DNA from: a virus | IMG/VR virus record: IMGVR_UViG_3300029585_000050 | DNA: 64,000 nucleotides | Strand: one strand, 5' to 3' | In this document: one piece after another, positions 6,947 to 62,146 of the stretch | Position numbering within the stretch: the stretch's first letter is position 1 | How the letters are laid out: each line of letters opens with the position of its first letter | Made by a program: the position numbers and the translations under genes | The notes under the pieces: model-generated | Databases searched by the model: none | What the model saw: the letters and a program-made list of their open reading frames with translations, nothing else | What the model was told of the DNA's origin: nothing

Positions 6947-7153
6947 ATGGTTGATTATAAAGAAGCAATCAATATGATGGCCGCTGAAATCGTTGTTTCA
7001 GAATGTGAAATTGAAGAGGCTCGTGAAAATATTGATAGTATTCGTCGTGGTGGTTTAGAAGTGCATAACCGTGAACATTACGAATCTGTAATTAGAATCA
7101 ATCGCGAACGTGTGTTAATGTTCAAGTCGGCCATTAATAAGTTGAGGAGCTAA
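6947..7153 (+). CDS. hypothetical protein
   Basis: ORF track; TGAGGA SD. Confidence 0.65.
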   Translation: MVDYKEAINMMAAEIVVSECEIEEARENIDSIRRGGLEVHNREHYESVIRINRERVLMFKSAINKLRS

Positions 7154-10716: not shown

Positions 10717-10786
10717 AAAGCTTTACACCCACTTTATTATCGTCTATCATCGCTTGAAACATTGAAAATAATCTGAGGAGATTTTT

Positions 10787-13369: not shown

Positions 13370-13636
13370 ATGAAAATTGCATTATTAATTGGTATGGTTA
13401 TGTTCAACGGTGGTCAAGAAGCTCAGTTGCAAGATGTATATGCTTACGACAGCTACAAATCTATGAAATCATGCGTTAAGATGGCGGAGAAGCTTTCTAA
13501 AAAGCCTGAGTACATGGGTTTACATATCCAGTGTTCAGATGTAGAAAGCGCGGAAGTACCAGAATACATCCGTGACATCCTTTCACATAAACTACCATCG
13601 TTTGAAAAGAAAGAGTCGGTTGTAGCCTCTCTATAA
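13370..13636 (+). CDS. hypothetical protein with signal-peptide-like N-terminus
   Basis: AAGGAG SD; hydrophobic N-terminus. Confidence 0.7.
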   Translation: MKIALLIGMVMFNGGQEAQLQDVYAYDSYKSMKSCVKMAEKLSKKPEYMGLHIQCSDVESAEVPEYIRDILSHKLPSFEKKESVVASL

Positions 13637-13779
13637 AAAAAGAGAAAAAACATATTGACTTTCGGTGTTGATTAGAGGATAATCAGCACCATTGTTTCGT
13701 TGAGGAACGGAATAAAAAAAAGTTTCAAAAAATTCAAATTTATGGTTTTATTTTTAGAAAGATGTACTATAATTTGAAA

Positions 13780-14084
13780 CAGAGGAAATCGAGGAAAATG
13801 TAAAGATTTCATGCGAAACGGCTCGGCAGGCATGTCGTGAATTGTAAAACCTGTATATAATGAGATAACCGTATAAGTGTCCTCCTCCCGCTTGGTTATC
13901 ACCGTGAATATGATGAGAACATTATGATGCAGTAATTCAAAGGGGACCTCCTCACCCCAATGCAAGACTGAACAAGCAGTCAGACATTGATGGTTTGCTT
14001 CCTATTAAAAAGCAATTTGACCCTCCTCACATTTTGTAATGGGAAGTCAAAACATCACTTTTCCCGTGTCTGACTGCTTTTTTA
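13780..14084 (+). ncRNA. candidate structured RNA with three CCUCCUC loops
   Basis: Hairpins 13864-13900, 13942-13958 and 13974-14079 each display CCTCCTC; ends in a T-tract; no + strand ORF; 5' end approximate. Confidence 0.6.
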
Positions 14085-14089
14085 ATTGT

Positions 14090-14165
14090 GGTCGGTTGTG
14101 GCATACCGTAGGGAACGACGGAACGGCTTAGGCTAGGTTGGGTTCAATTCCCAACACTGACCCCA
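14090..14165 (+). ncRNA. tRNA-like RNA lacking a canonical D-arm
   Basis: GGTCGGT/ACTGACC acceptor followed by CCA; T-arm GTTGGG-TTCAATT-CCCAAC. Confidence 0.5.
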
Positions 14166-14175
14166 AATTTATCAG

Positions 14176-14406
14176 GTGAATGTAATGATTGATACATACA
14201 AACCATTTAAGATACAAGATGATTGTGGTACGGGTGACGAATACGAATTCACATCAAACGACGTTATCTATCGTGACCATAATGTTTGTATGGTGGTGTT
14301 ACCTGAGTTATTAGATTGGGATGAAGATAAGCACGTCTTAATCAATATCCATACAGGCGAAGTATTGAGTAATAATCTTCAATTTTACTACGCCAAACAA
14401 AATTGA
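14176..14406 (+). CDS. hypothetical protein
   Basis: ORF track. Confidence 0.55.
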   Translation: MNVMIDTYKPFKIQDDCGTGDEYEFTSNDVIYRDHNVCMVVLPELLDWDEDKHVLINIHTGEVLSNNLQFYYAKQN

Positions 14407-14484
14407 CGCGGTGTAGAGCAGTCTGGTCAGCTCGTGTGGCTCATAACCACAAGGTCGGGGGTTCGAATCCCTCCATCGCTACCA
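14407..14484 (+). tRNA. tRNA-Met(CAU), initiator-like
   Basis: Full cloverleaf, loop CTCATAA, C1/U72 mismatch, A11-U24 pair, encoded CCA. Confidence 0.92.
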
Positions 14485-14566
14485 ATTTTTCGCGAAAAAG
14501 CTGTGGGTACGTTGGCGCTCACCATGGTTCGTAAGAACAGCAGGTCAGTACGGCAAGTCACACAAT

Positions 14567-14666
14567 CAATGTGTTTTCAAAACTGTCACTATAATGCTTC
14601 ATTAACTGTCGTTACGGGAGCATAGTTTCGACAGGCAATGTATAGGACAGTTTTGAAAGCATATTG
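14567..14666 (+). ncRNA. candidate rod-like hairpin RNA
   Basis: 21 contiguous bp (14567-14587 with 14646-14666) plus inner stems. Confidence 0.5.
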
Positions 14667-14821
14667 CTTAATATCATGAGATAGGCTAACTATTCAAGAG
14701 ATAGACACTTGATGAAAAGCCCCTCCCGCTACAAGGCGGTGAAGCACCTATCGAGTCGTTGCTAAGACATGTCTAAGTCGGCGATGCCTCTCAGCTAAGT
14801 GGATGATGCTGTAAATCAATT

Positions 14822-15113
14822 AATTCAATATAGAAAGGGGTATGGCGCTAATTATATGTCGGTCTTAATATCGCCGAATTTCGTTGGTGCAAATATACGA
14901 AATCCCTGAAACCCAAGTTAGCTAATGTACAATACCGCATATCTTTAATTAAGTTGTATCATTGTAAGTACGCGAGTTAGGTACGGAGTAGACCGTAGAA
15001 ACCTTGAAGAAATAAATGATGATGCATGGAATTTCTGAGTGAGTACAACCACTGGTGGAATAAAGAAGCACCCCACACGGGCATGAACGTCATATCTCTT
15101 TCTATATTGAATT
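14822..15113 (+). ncRNA. candidate 292-nt multibranch RNA
   Basis: 26 contiguous bp closing stem (14822-14847 with 15088-15113) and internal hairpins; no ORF. Confidence 0.6.
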
Positions 15114-15184
15114 TCACTAAAACTTCAAGTTTCAACATCCGTTGAAAGTAACCAAATAGTGAAACTTTTCACTGGCGGTGAACC

Positions 15185-15607
15185 ATGGCTGATAAACCAA
15201 TTCGAGAAGTACCAATAAGTATTGAATCCCTTTTCAATTTTGAACCACCTTCGTACAAAGAAGGCGTTGATTACTTCTATTATCACATTGATGATATGAC
15301 TGATGAGAAATTAGAAGTCGTCAAAGATGGCAAGATGGTTTTCGTCGTTTATGATGACTACGACCAAGCTTACGATTTCTATGGCCATATCTGTGATAGA
15401 TTTGATAATGAGATAGACAGAAGCTATCTCTGTATCATGGAGCAATGGGATAACCATTCATACGGTGAAATGAAAGCCAAATACACGTTGGAATTAGAAG
15501 AACCAGTCACAATTGAATGGCAATGCCCCGCCGCCAAAGAAGGTATTAACTTGAGTGGTAACGCACTAAATTCTATTGTTAGATTAAAAAGAGGCGATGA
15601 TAAATGA
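15185..15607 (+). CDS. hypothetical protein
   Basis: ORF track. Confidence 0.65.
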   Translation: MADKPIREVPISIESLFNFEPPSYKEGVDYFYYHIDDMTDEKLEVVKDGKMVFVVYDDYDQAYDFYGHICDRFDNEIDRSYLCIMEQWDNHSYGEMKAKYTLELEEPVTIEWQCPAAKEGINLSGNALNSIVRLKRGDDK

Positions 15608-27869: not shown

Positions 27870-27940
27870 TTGCAATTTTTTTCATACTTTAGTATATTAG
27901 ATGCATGGGGTGGTTATCCCGAAACAAAAAGTCTGAGGAG
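27870..27940 (+). promoter_or_regulatory. early promoter with GTCTGAGGAG leader
   Basis: TTGCAA-17nt-TATATT; GTCTGAGGAG at 27931-27940. Confidence 0.65.
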
Positions 27941-27948
27941 GCTAAAGT

Positions 27949-28302
27949 ATGAAACAACCAAAGTTAAGTAAAGAAGAATTCCGAGCGCAAGAAAAAAAGC
28001 TTGAAGCTATCCAACCTCTTGCACAAAAAGCAATCAAAGAATTAGGTCTAATAGGCGCTGTCGTCCAATCAGGATTCAGTGGTCGCCCTTCATTAGATGT
28101 CATCATTAACCGTGAAGACAACGGTCGTGCATGGAATGACGAATGGCGTGAGCTTATGAATGTTCTTTGCGGTAAGCTAAGTGACCTTGGTCTACTATGG
28201 GCGGCAGAATATGATGGCTTTAATCAACTAATCACTAAAGACGAGAATGGAGAGCCTTGGATGCTCTTTAACGGTTCTTGTGTATCACTAAAGGCGGCAT
28301 AA
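27949..28302 (+). CDS. hypothetical protein
   Basis: Promoter and strong SD upstream. Confidence 0.7.
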   Translation: MKQPKLSKEEFRAQEKKLEAIQPLAQKAIKELGLIGAVVQSGFSGRPSLDVIINREDNGRAWNDEWRELMNVLCGKLSDLGLLWAAEYDGFNQLITKDENGEPWMLFNGSCVSLKAA

Positions 28303-28532: not shown

Positions 28533-28611
28533 TTGCAATGACATTGAAGCTTTAGTATATTATTAATCATAGGGCGAAGGGCGAAACATTCAATTAAATT
28601 AGTCTGAGGAG
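28533..28611 (+). promoter_or_regulatory. early promoter with GTCTGAGGAG leader
   Basis: TTGCAA-17nt-TATATT; GTCTGAGGAG at 28602-28611. Confidence 0.65.
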
Positions 28612-28619
28612 ACACTATT

Positions 28620-56812: not shown

Positions 56813-56870
56813 TTGCACTAAAACCCCAATATGCTATTATATCTGTGTTGGGAAAATAAAGTCTGAGGAG
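56813..56870 (+). promoter_or_regulatory. early promoter with GTCTGAGGAG leader
   Basis: A-tracts, TTGCAC-16nt-TATTAT with extended -10; GTCTGAGGAG at 56861-56870. Confidence 0.65.
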
Positions 56871-56879
56871 ACAAAAAGA

Positions 56880-57292: not shown

Positions 57293-58930
57293 ATGAGTAA
57301 ACCACAGTTAAAAACGCGAAAAGATAATACGCAGTTAATGATTATCGGCGGTATTGTAACTGTAGTTGCTCTGATTGGTATGGTGGCTTTCAAACTGTTA
57401 TCAGATTCAAAGACACTATCGTTATCAGATGCGGCTAACATTGAACACACAGTTAATATCGGCGTTGATGATTGGGCGGGGTATTTCTACCTATGTTCAA
57501 ACAAAACACGCCAATTCGCCATCGAAGACGGTATTCTTATTCAATGTGAACACGAAGAAAACGGCATAGACTTCGATGAACGTTTCCAAAAATTACGCGA
57601 CGGTGAACTTCAATTAGCTGCTATGACGGCTGATACCTATGTTCGCGTCAGTGATGACCACCGTACACAATTCTCAAGCGTCGTCGGCGTTATTGATGAA
57701 TCATTCGGCGGTGATGCTATCCTAATGCGTAAAGACCTAGTAATCGATGGAACGACACCAACCGAGTCATTTAAGCAGGCATCTCGTTTATCATTAGGTT
57801 TCACTGACGAAAGCCCATCAAGCATGATTGTCACCAGTTGGAAAAGTGACTTCGGTATTCAACTCGATGACCAAACTCGATACACTGTTGTTGAAACTGA
57901 AGGTTCAAAGGACGCATGTGATAAATTAATACGCGGCGAAATCGATGCGGCGGCATGTTGGGAGCCACATGTAACAAAGGCATTGGATACAGGTAAATTC
58001 GTCAAGGTTATTGGCTCAGATGAAACCAAAAACCTTATAGTTGACATCTTAGTTGGTAATAACGACTTCATTAATAAAGGTGATGTACTTGAGCGCGTGT
58101 TGAAAGCATACGGTAAGTCTATGGACTTCTACGGCACCAACCCAGATGAACTAGATGATGACATGAGTGATTACACCAACCTTAAAGGTAAGCAACTAGA
58201 ATCACTTATGAATGGTATTAAATGGACTACATTAGTTGACAATGGTACAAACTGGCTTGGCATCACCTACGGCGGTGGCCTTAAAGGTAACATCCAGTTG
58301 TTCGACACATTCAAGATTGTGACTAACCTTTTAATCAGCAATGATGAAATTTCATCCAGTCCATTCCAGAACGAAGACCCATTCACTGCCATCAACTCGA
58401 CACCGATTTCTCGTGTGTTCGCGGTGGGTGAATCAGGTAACATCGGTTATCCATTCATTGTACCAACAAAAGTTGAGAATATGGGTATCAGTCGTCCATT
58501 CAAGAAAGCATCGGCGGCACGTTGGATGAAAATGAAGCCAGTGGGTTCTGTTGACATCCCTAAGATTAAATTCAAGTCGGGTAAAGATGAATTTCAACCT
58601 GCCATGGAAGAGCAAGAAGCATTCACTCGCATCGTTGATATTTTGCTGAAATACCCTAACTATCGCCTTAAAATCGAAGGTCATACAAGTTGTGGTACAG
58701 TAGATTGTAAGTACGATGACGTTGACGCAGGCATGGATTTATCGAAAGCTCGTGCGGTGGCTGTGCATAAAGTGTTGGTTGACCAACTAGGTGTACACAA
58801 AAACCGTGTTATGACTACGGGTTATGGTAGCTCTAAACCAGTTAAACGCCGCCTTGTCGATGGTAAGTTCGAATCGAAACGCGCATGGTTAAAGCGTTGG
58901 GCACGAGTTGAAATTATTTTAGTAAGATAG
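57293..58930 (+). CDS. membrane-anchored NMT1/TauA-like substrate-binding domain fused to a C-terminal OmpA-like domain
   Basis: N-terminal TM helix; IGVDDWAGY, IDESFGGDAI, CWEPHVT; IEGHT..LSKARAVAV..L, GYGSSKPV, RVEI. Confidence 0.8.
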   Translation: MSKPQLKTRKDNTQLMIIGGIVTVVALIGMVAFKLLSDSKTLSLSDAANIEHTVNIGVDDWAGYFYLCSNKTRQFAIEDGILIQCEHEENGIDFDERFQKLRDGELQLAAMTADTYVRVSDDHRTQFSSVVGVIDESFGGDAILMRKDLVIDGTTPTESFKQASRLSLGFTDESPSSMIVTSWKSDFGIQLDDQTRYTVVETEGSKDACDKLIRGEIDAAACWEPHVTKALDTGKFVKVIGSDETKNLIVDILVGNNDFINKGDVLERVLKAYGKSMDFYGTNPDELDDDMSDYTNLKGKQLESLMNGIKWTTLVDNGTNWLGITYGGGLKGNIQLFDTFKIVTNLLISNDEISSSPFQNEDPFTAINSTPISRVFAVGESGNIGYPFIVPTKVENMGISRPFKKASAARWMKMKPVGSVDIPKIKFKSGKDEFQPAMEEQEAFTRIVDILLKYPNYRLKIEGHTSCGTVDCKYDDVDAGMDLSKARAVAVHKVLVDQLGVHKNRVMTTGYGSSKPVKRRLVDGKFESKRAWLKRWARVEIILVR

Positions 58931-61179: not shown

Positions 61180-61207
61180 TAAACTTATTTTAACTGTCTG
61201 AGGAGAT

Positions 61208-62146
61208 ATGAACATGAGAAAAATTATTTTAGGAATGATACCGTTTTTGTTAATCATCATTGGTTATCATTTCTTAGCAGACGCACGTCACGAACAAAAG
61301 AAGCTGAAAGGTGAAGAAGAGCTAATCACACCTTACTACAGTAAAATTTTCAAGGCTGCAAACGAATACACGTTTGAAAAGACTGCCACCGTATTTTCGC
61401 CATTCATGTCCAATAAAGAAGTGGCCACCATCAAGAAAGAACAGCGTAAAGCATGTTTAGAACAAATCGGCGATACAATGTCGAAACGTGATGCGAAGAA
61501 GCATTGTAAATCACAGGCTTACCAAGAAAGCCGTTTATGGAACGATATTAAAGCCAGTGGATTCCGCATGATAGTCGGCATCACTATTGCTGTTGTCATT
61601 GCATTCCCATTAGGTTTGATTTTGGGATTATTTAAGACTAGCCGTGAATTGTTATCACCATTCATTGTATTCTTGTCAATTATTCCACCATTGTCGTTAC
61701 TGCCTGCATTCCTTTTAACATTGGGTACAGGTGAGATTGCCAAGATTGCTTTAATCGTGGTCGGCTTGGTGTTCTTATTGACCCGCGACATCGAACGTGA
61801 AGTGTTGGCATTCCCTACCGAATTGAAAATCAAGGCTATGACATTGGGTGCATCGAATTTTGATATGATATTCCGCATCATTGCCCCACAAATGATGCCA
61901 ATTGTATTGAACATGGTTTGTTTACAACTTGGTGCGGCATGGTTGTTCTTATTAGCCAGTGAGGCTATGGCGGCTCAGTCTGGACTAGGTTACACTATTT
62001 ACCTATCACAGCGTTACTTGGCAATGGATGTAATCATCTTCTATGTTATGGTAATCACATTCCTTGGCTTTTTGTTGAATAAGTCAATAAAAATGTTGAA
62101 TGTTAAGTTGTTCCCGTGGTACGCTGCAATCAATGGAGGTAAATAA
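61208..62146 (+). CDS. ABC transporter permease (NitT/TauT family)
   Basis: Multiple TM helices; IPPLSLLP, A.TLGAS, AWLFLLASE, GLGY. Confidence 0.88.
   Translation: MNMRKIILGMIPFLLIIIGYHFLADARHEQKKLKGEEELITPYYSKIFKAANEYTFEKTATVFSPFMSNKEVATIKKEQRKACLEQIGDTMSKRDAKKHCKSQAYQESRLWNDIKASGFRMIVGITIAVVIAFPLGLILGLFKTSRELLSPFIVFLSIIPPLSLLPAFLLTLGTGEIAKIALIVVGLVFLLTRDIEREVLAFPTELKIKAMTLGASNFDMIFRIIAPQMMPIVLNMVCLQLGAAWLFLLASEAMAAQSGLGYTIYLSQRYLAMDVIIFYVMVITFLGFLLNKSIKMLNVKLFPWYAAINGGK

Follow-up and report, generated by a model that had tools for sequence, protein, structure and literature searches.

A candidate structured RNA with three anti-Shine-Dalgarno loops in an uncultured marine phage

The locus and its three CCTCCTC loops

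The window analysed here is a stretch of 64,000 nucleotides (nt; 64 kilobases, kb) from an uncultured marine phage (IMG/VR record IMGVR_UViG_3300029585_000050), an accessory region of 39% G+C in which the open reading frames (ORFs) lie almost all on the plus strand and which encodes five tRNAs and, among other proteins, RNA ligase 2, a C5 methylase, an M17 peptidase and an acyl-CoA dehydrogenase. Between a gene of 88 amino acids (aa; end at 13636) and a gene of 140 aa (start at 15185) lies a 1.5-kb ORF-poor island, the first 305 nt of which (13780–14084, on the plus strand, as are the promoter-like sites, the parts of the RNA, the tRNA-like element and the target sites placed below) very probably specify a real structured RNA. 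The sole credible coding sequence of the island is a 73-aa ORF (14185–14406), and a tRNA-Met gene follows it at 14407–14484. Neither strand of 13780–14084 holds a conserved ORF, and the plus strand holds no sizeable one; a candidate minus-strand gene, a 97-aa ORF opening with TTG (13672–13965), was rejected because the relative L123 does not preserve it. The original prediction for this stretch was a plus-strand non-coding RNA with several anti-Shine-Dalgarno (anti-SD) loops complementary to the phage's own TGAGGAG sites. This core reading now has support from the statistics of the sequence, from its folding and strand asymmetry, from a conservation that exceeds that of adjacent genes and from two base pairs with compensatory changes.

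The motif CCTCCTC occurs four times in the window, counting both strands, and three of these copies fall inside the RNA. These three are also all of the plus-strand copies, of which a second-order Markov model predicts 0.2 in 64 kb. Loop 1 (TCCTCCTCC in DNA, UCCUCCUCC in RNA; 13880–88) and loop 2 (ACCTCCTCA, or ACCUCCUCA in RNA; 13946–54, flanked by GGGG and CCCC) are 9 nt long, and loop 3 (CCCTCCTCAC, or CCCUCCUCAC in RNA; 14020–29), at the tip of a long rod, has 10 nt. That three hairpins expose one shared motif had been noticed at the outset, and coordinates, folding and counts bear this out: all three motifs lie in hairpin loops in the minimum-free-energy, centroid and RNAalifold structures, and they are unpaired with a probability of 0.64–0.99 in the RNA of the window and of two relatives, whereas the RNA as a whole averages 0.40. 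The plus strand folds with −83.1 kcal/mol (z = −3.13), which none of 100 shuffled sequences equalled, whereas the minus strand reaches z = −1.45. About ten G·U pairs of the fold become C-A mismatches on the opposite strand, and the fold is thus specific to the plus strand. Outside the RNA, the shorter word CTCCT is seen once on the plus strand against about eight expected under the same type of model, a depletion that suggests that the phage messages avoid anti-SD-like words.

The consensus structure comprises 91 base pairs (bp) in 12 helices and places the three loops in different settings. Nearest the 5′ end is a hairpin with a GAAAUC/GAUUUC stem (13785–13810), the loop of which carries GAGGA (13791–95) and an AUG-UAA start-stop (13798–13803); another GAGGA lies at 13782, so that both repeats and the start-stop stand where the original prediction had put them. 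This hairpin is invariant in the relatives except for a 1-nt indel in the loop and an adjacent A-to-G change. Two small hairpins come next, followed by a multibranch domain (13838–13939) that encloses hairpin 1 (13864–13900; 37 nt), and then by hairpin 2, a mini-hairpin of 17 nt (13942–13958) with a 4-bp GGGG/CCCC stem. The rod of 106 nt (13974–14079) carries loop 3 and closes with a perfect lower stem of 12 bp plus, which runs into six T residues (14078–83); both the GGGG/CCCC stem and the rod with its T-tract had been described correctly. The lower stem and T-tract look like an intrinsic terminator.

Two promoter-like sites precede the RNA. The upstream one, P1 (13655–13683), is of the sigma-70 type, with TTGACT and GATAAT 17 nt apart; its hexamers are invariant in the relatives and its spacer is variable. 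Its −10 box is overlapped by a terminator-like hairpin of the 88-aa gene (13664–13690), in which an A-U pair becomes G·U in the relatives, which argues that this helix is kept at the RNA level. The downstream site, P2 (13766–13773), consists of the −10-like box ACTATAAT (box at 13768–73) behind an A/T-rich stretch, and is likely the proximal promoter of the RNA. As the box lies 7 nt before the point at which conservation rises to near-invariance (about 13781), the 5′ end of the RNA is probably near 13780.

Conservation in relatives and the downstream part of the island

Among deposited phages the window lacks a close relative. We found no DNA match to the window among 50,697 phage records (blastn, distant mode), tblastn with a 697-aa protein (18861) and the RNA ligase returned relatives that were all less than 37% identical, and an IMG/VR search via the neighbouring proteins returned none. 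Metagenome contigs compared with the locus gave relatives about 90% identical in seawater and hydrothermal-vent samples, and three were obtained via the 73-aa ORF: L123 (an NCBI metagenome, 90.5% identity), L124 (Logan, 89%) and L125 (JGI, 99.9%). At 99.9% identity the last is the same phage as the window, and the comparison thus covers three distinct sequences (the window, L123 and L124), at most 11% apart, in an alignment of 322 columns.

The RNA is 92.6% identical to its counterpart in L123 and 92.5% to that in L124. Between the window and L123, identity is 86.2% for the 88-aa gene, 85.6% for the 73-aa ORF, 87.4% for the promoter spacer (84–87% over L123 and L124) and 94.9% for the tRNA-Met. 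RNAalifold predicted 93 pairs, from which two spurious terminal ones were dropped, and all of the remaining 91 are standard pairs in all three sequences. Two pairs change on both sides, 13867/13897 in the outer stem of hairpin 1 (A-U to G-C) and 14002/14042 in the rod (C-G to U-A), and three more show one-sided compatible changes to or from G·U (13840/13937, 13874/13894 and 13996/14049). The other substitutions and all indels are confined to loops, bulges and linkers; one of them makes the first base of loop 2 a G in L124. The covariation check in related phages that had been proposed thus yields two compensatory pairs and no broken pair, with a shuffle control to which we return below.

Directly 3′ of the T-tract lies a tRNA-like element (14090–14165), recognized by eye from a 7-bp acceptor stem (GGTCGGT/ACTGACC), a T arm (TTGGG-TTCAATT-CCCAA) and a 3′ CCA. 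ARAGORN makes no call on it and the Rfam tRNA model does not match it; in Rfam it scores, weakly, with one model alone, that of the tRNA-like mascRNA (17.6 bits, E = 1.5). The element is 100% identical in L123, and in L124 it is shorter by 11 nt in the D-arm region and by 7 nt at the 3′ end, including the CCA, with the acceptor and T-arm core kept. Lying between the RNA and the genes that follow, it may serve as a processing signal for RNase P/Z. The tRNA-like element, the 73-aa ORF and the tRNA-Met all lack a visible promoter, which makes some read-through followed by processing likely.

The rest of the island has features of its own. The tRNA-Met(CAT), 320 nt from the anti-SD RNA, shows two hallmarks of bacterial initiator tRNA, the C1:A72 mismatch and the A11:U24 pair, and its anticodon stem has only two G-C pairs, compared with three in initiators. 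A 100-nt segment (14568–14667) with a further ACTATAAT promoter-like box (14588–95) is missing from L123 and from a vent metagenome contig, where GAATTT stands in its place, so that the start of the next non-coding unit varies among relatives. Beyond it, a 292-nt stretch with a long closing helix (14822–15113) is 95% identical to L123, while the following 15114–15200 is just 68% identical, a pattern consistent with a second conserved RNA in the island.

More distant homologues of the neighbouring ORFs add little. The contig with a 68% homologue of the 73-aa ORF stops 95 nt upstream of it, and those 95 nt are unlike the tRNA-like element; homologues at 34–41% are embedded among densely arrayed genes, with no RNA of this kind; and a 56% homologue of the 140-aa ORF lies on a contig of 871 nt, too short to be informative. 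Scans with exact patterns, which say little about the absence of further copies, returned at least 120 matches in IMG/VR for three spaced CCTCCTC motifs, and among the matches listed 124 of 125 lay in long ORFs and one was antisense of ribosome-binding sites. A stricter three-loop pattern gave two matches in IMG/VR and at least 120 in metagenomes, those listed from metagenomes not including the window's own contig; all of the matches listed were coding antisense except one CRISPR (clustered regularly interspaced short palindromic repeats) array and one at the very end of a contig, which could not be judged. The 17-mer of hairpin 2 gave two chance matches only.

A matching tag in the phage's ribosome-binding sites

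The counterpart of the loops is found in the phage's own ribosome-binding sites. TGAGGAG occurs eight times on the plus strand of the window, against 0.7 expected under the second-order Markov model, and all eight copies sit 3–9 nt 5′ of an ORF-opening ATG, that is, as ribosome-binding sites. The claim that the loops complement the SD sequence of the phage's promoter-proximal genes is thereby upheld. The shorter GAGGAG is seen 13 times against 1.8 expected, with 12 of the 13 at the same spacing from an ORF-opening ATG, whereas the canonical TAAGGAG is present once against 1.2 expected. The exact complement of the tag, CTCCTCA, is limited on the plus strand to loops 2 and 3. Most tags lie behind TTGCA/TATTAT-type promoters within a repeated leader, AAAGUCUGAGGAGAC. 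The best predicted target is the UGAGGAGG ribosome-binding site (27934–27941) of a 117-aa gene (27949), with 8-bp pairing to loops 2 and 3; the UGAGGAG site of the gene at 25002 (24987–24993) also stands behind a promoter, and other sites of the class lie at 7143, 10774, 28605, 48143, 56864 and 61199. In sister-assembly relatives, the tag is kept at two leaders in which the immediately adjacent bases are substituted.

Duplex energies were calculated with the loops and with the standard 16S ribosomal RNA tail, CCUCCUUA, which we assumed for the host. On the UGAGGAGA leader, the loops give −10.5 to −12.0 kcal/mol and the assumed standard tail (ACCUCCUUA) −9.2, and the GUCUGAGGAGACA leader gives the same values, −10.5 to −12.0 against −9.2 kcal/mol with the same tail, so that on UGAGGAGA leaders the loops beat the assumed standard anti-SD by 1.3–2.8 kcal/mol. 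For UGAGGAGG, upstream of the gene at 27949, the loops reach −12.8 to −14.5 kcal/mol and the assumed tail −12.1. The order is reversed on the canonical UAAGGAGG, where the loops give −10.0 to −11.7 and the assumed tail −13.5 kcal/mol. Loops 2 and 3 hold CUCCUCA, whereas the assumed standard tail needs a G·U pair with the tag; provided that the host tail is standard, the one position at which the loops depart from the universal anti-SD, with C in place of U, therefore favours the phage tag.

The tagged leaders share a further feature. In seven of the eight TGAGGAG leaders, the tag lies within a 12-nt palindrome of the form NUCU-GAGG-AGAN, which reads GUCUGAGGAGAC in three of them (7139–7150, 10771–10782, 24984–24995, 27931–27942, 28602–28613, 56861–56872 and 61196–61207). 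The palindrome can fold as a 4-bp mini-hairpin with GAGG looped, and its closing pair varies (G-C, A-U, G·U or U·G) and is always paired; the palindrome could serve for recognition, for processing or to present the SD sequence. One tag belongs to a 310-aa gene at 61214, a relative of which is recorded with a BPD_transp_1 permease domain. The gene lies in an apparent transporter operon carried by the phage (57293–64000), which also encodes an OmpA-domain/NMT1-like binding protein (57293–58930).

Proposed action and rival explanations

From the sequence and its predicted fold, we propose that a plus-strand RNA of about 305 nt is transcribed from the ACTATAAT promoter about 10 nt upstream, perhaps also from the second, stronger promoter P1 (13655), and would end at the intrinsic terminator at 14079–84. 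The loops UCCUCCUCC, ACCUCCUCA and CCCUCCUCAC would pair with SD regions and exclude 30S subunits. Preferred targets would probably be the phage's own messages with UGAGGAG, mostly close behind sigma-70-type promoters in a GUCUGAGGAGAC leader, and host messages with GAGGAG-type sites might be hit too. As the stable RNA builds up, it would progressively shut off the tagged class of genes and so act as a timer or dosage brake. We put the chance that the three loops work by blocking ribosome-binding sites at about even; the phage's own UGAGGAG-tagged messages are the best candidate targets, a narrower claim that we make tentatively and at somewhat less than even odds. Of the three options first put forward, the SD-binding repressor alone gains positive, if indirect, support, which comes from the duplex energies, with repression itself staying a proposal. 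A still more speculative extension, which we consider doubtful, would be a private translation code in which the RNA loops outcompete the ribosomal anti-SD solely on UGAGGAG, set in its GUCU-GAGG-AGAC mini-hairpin, and in which the tRNA mimic and the initiator-type tRNA-Met complete a phage module for shifting the timing of translation initiation in the course of infection, with neither a protein repressor nor a nuclease involved.

A number of points weigh against this proposal. Shuffling provides a weak control for the covariation (45 of 500), and three invariant 7-mers would be expected by chance in about one case in five at 92.6% identity; because only three close sequences are available, the case for the loops rests on their number, placement and complement and not on conservation. 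P2 stands without a good −35 element, and termination at the rod may be inefficient, in which case the RNA may be part of a longer precursor. The comparison of loops with the ribosome rests on a 16S tail that may differ from the host's. The seed is just 7–8 nt, and purine-rich SD sequences complement any anti-SD-like loop; a crude duplex ranking of 136 ORF starts was noisy, with tagged genes in the top ten and no clean separation. Finally, the leaders at 24988 and 56865 are near-identical, and the tagged leaders are partly near-copies of one cassette, so that the excess of tags does not represent eight independent events.

A longer precursor is also the basis of the leading, though unlikely, alternative, in which the RNA belongs to a polycistronic precursor of stable RNAs and has a structural or protein-binding role in it. 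The precursor would span the RNA, the tRNA-like element, the 73-aa ORF, the tRNA-Met and further RNAs up to 15184, with the CU-rich loops bound by a pyrimidine-rich-RNA-binding protein of phage or host. A nearly ORF-free 1.5-kb island in which two further conserved folded stretches accompany a tRNA and a tRNA-like element would suit such a precursor, as would downstream genes without a visible promoter and a tRNA-like element right behind the T-tract that could be an RNase P/Z cutting signal; the T4 tRNA cluster, where RNAs C and D are stable and have no known function, offers a comparable context. None of the adjacent genes, however, codes for an RNA-binding protein, the neighbouring ORFs having no credible family match (Pfam E ≤ 0.1, PHROGs E ≤ 0.01), and a precursor leaves unexplained both the exact complementarity to an over-represented tag and the better fit to that tag than to the canonical SD. 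The same promoterless downstream genes, behind a promoter, a long folded leader and a terminator, make a layout like that of a riboswitch or attenuator, and the RNA could instead be a cis-acting leader of about 300 nt that gates read-through into the tRNA-like element, the 73-aa ORF and the initiator-type tRNA-Met, its anti-SD loops or its 5′ SD-AUG-UAA sensing how much ribosome or initiation capacity there is. This would agree with the 5′ hairpin loop, where a conserved SD-like GAGGA precedes AUG-UAA, and with the initiator features (C1:A72, A11:U24) of the downstream tRNA-Met. We judge it less probable than the precursor, as no alternative antiterminator pairing is evident, the lower stem of 12 bp plus shows no variation and is very stable, just 2–3 nt separate GAGGA from the AUG, and attenuators are not known to carry three identical exposed loops.

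The loops share CCUCCU with the universal anti-SD core and present it in multivalent form, and they could on that account be a decoy of the 16S 3′ end that titrates a factor acting there, such as a nuclease with a cutting site close to the anti-SD, a modification or maturation enzyme or a ribosomal protein. This seems quite improbable to us: the departure of the loops from the 16S tail, C for U, falls exactly where the match to the tag improves, there is no context like that of helix 45, and no candidate partner gene is known. Lower again we place the possibilities that the loops find their partner in the GAGGA repeats at the 5′ end of the same RNA, that the 5′ GGA sites titrate a CsrA-type protein, or that the loops titrate small RNAs (sRNAs) with GGA loops. 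Both GAGGA repeats are conserved, the second lies in an open loop (probability of being unpaired 0.83–0.91), and a duplex of GAGGAA with the loops is predicted at −7.7 to −8.1 kcal/mol; such a 5-bp pairing is nevertheless weaker than that of the loops with the tagged leaders. Sponges of the CsrB/RsmZ type have many GGA sites, whereas this RNA has only two GGA-containing sites (13782 and 13791), one of them clearly unpaired, and the suggestion of a CsrB/RsmZ-type sponge in the original prediction accordingly finds no support. Least credible of all is a chance cluster of motifs in a decaying intergenic region without function. The small size of the family would fit it, but three copies stand against 0.2 expected and all lie in hairpin loops, conservation exceeds that of the flanking genes, and two pairs are compensatory with none of 91 broken.

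Comparison with known anti-SD and phage regulators

The closest published analogue is the cuckoo family, in which two to four adjacent hairpins carry CCUCCUCCC in each loop on highly variable stems (PMC4615179). Its members include RSs0680a-d, that is CcsR1-4, of Rhodobacter sphaeroides and alpha-r14, that is SmelC397/NfeR1, of Sinorhizobium (Rfam RF02344), and in NfeR1 three anti-SD motifs redundantly silence messages at the ribosome-binding site (PMC10746234). The phage RNA shares with this family several hairpins with one anti-SD loop motif on differing stems, in the same number of three as in NfeR1. Loop 1 even holds the full 9-mer CCUCCUCCC (13881–89), whose final C belongs to the closing pair; in loops 2 and 3 the sequence is CCUCCUCAC, which agrees at eight of nine positions and likewise has its final C in the closing pair. 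The original prediction had likened the RNA to RNAIII and missed this closer analogue.

The architecture differs. The matcher used for the family calls for hairpins of 24–50 nt with a helix of at least 6 bp, linkers of at most 10 nt and no multiloop (PMC4615179), whereas the phage RNA is 305 nt long and its hairpin 1, which at 37 nt fits the size range, lies inside a multibranch domain; hairpin 2 has 17 nt and 4 bp, loop 3 caps a 106-nt rod, and the hairpins are separated by 41 nt (hairpins 1 and 2) and 15 nt (hairpin 2 and the rod). Covariance models perform poorly on the family according to its authors (PMC4615179), and a cmscan of 13600–14700 with 4227 Rfam families at E ≤ 10 gave no ar14- or CcsR-type match; at the gathering score, Rfam matched only tRNAs in the whole window, and the matches at E ≤ 10 over 13600–14700 were at chance level. 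Published members are limited to Rhodobacterales, Rhizobiales and one unclassified alphaproteobacterium (PMC4615179), and the CcsR RNAs sit behind a DUF1127 gene (CcaF1), the product of which binds them (PMC8034643). No DUF1127 gene is present among the ten ORFs neighbouring the phage RNA. This locus is in a phage with gammaproteobacterial-looking borrowed genes; the nearest cellular homologues of the M17 peptidase are gammaproteobacterial (40–54% identity), a weak clue that the host looks gammaproteobacterial as well. Given the differing architecture, the lack of Rfam matches, the taxon and synteny and the host clue, we regard the phage RNA as a functional analogue and not as a cuckoo member, and the likeness is probably convergent and not by descent.

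Other regulators share parts of the proposed action. SprX (RsaOR), encoded by converting phages of Staphylococcus aureus, blocks the spoVG ribosome-binding site with a C-rich loop (PMC4005690), and is likewise a phage-borne small RNA, which by this pairing prevents the loading of ribosomes; it differs in belonging to temperate phages, in using one functional loop and in its host target, and shares neither sequence nor structure with the phage RNA, which has three loops and finds its best-matching targets among the phage's own genes. RNAIII of Staphylococcus, with UCCC in three hairpin loops, and the 6C sRNA of Mycobacterium (PMC6486639) are multi-hairpin regulators that also direct C-rich loop seeds at SD regions, but they are host-encoded, have other motifs and architectures and are unrelated in sequence. 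In the literature searched, we found no published cuckoo-type or other anti-SD hairpin RNA in phages. To our knowledge, nearly all phage small RNAs described so far belong to temperate phages of model hosts and have host genes as their targets.

The regulatory logic that we propose is closest to that of T4 RegB, an endoribonuclease that cuts GGAG in the ribosome-binding sites of early messages. In both cases the phage would shut off a class of its own messages through their SD signature, with a protein nuclease in T4 and a base-pairing RNA here. If the proposal is true, a large, apparently lytic marine phage uses a multi-loop anti-SD RNA against a signature in its own ribosome-binding sites. 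The cuckoo design would then have been invented a second time, probably independently, outside the Alphaproteobacteria, and protein systems such as T4 RegB/RegA would have a counterpart made of RNA. As effector and tag lie in one phage genome, the hypothesis is directly testable.

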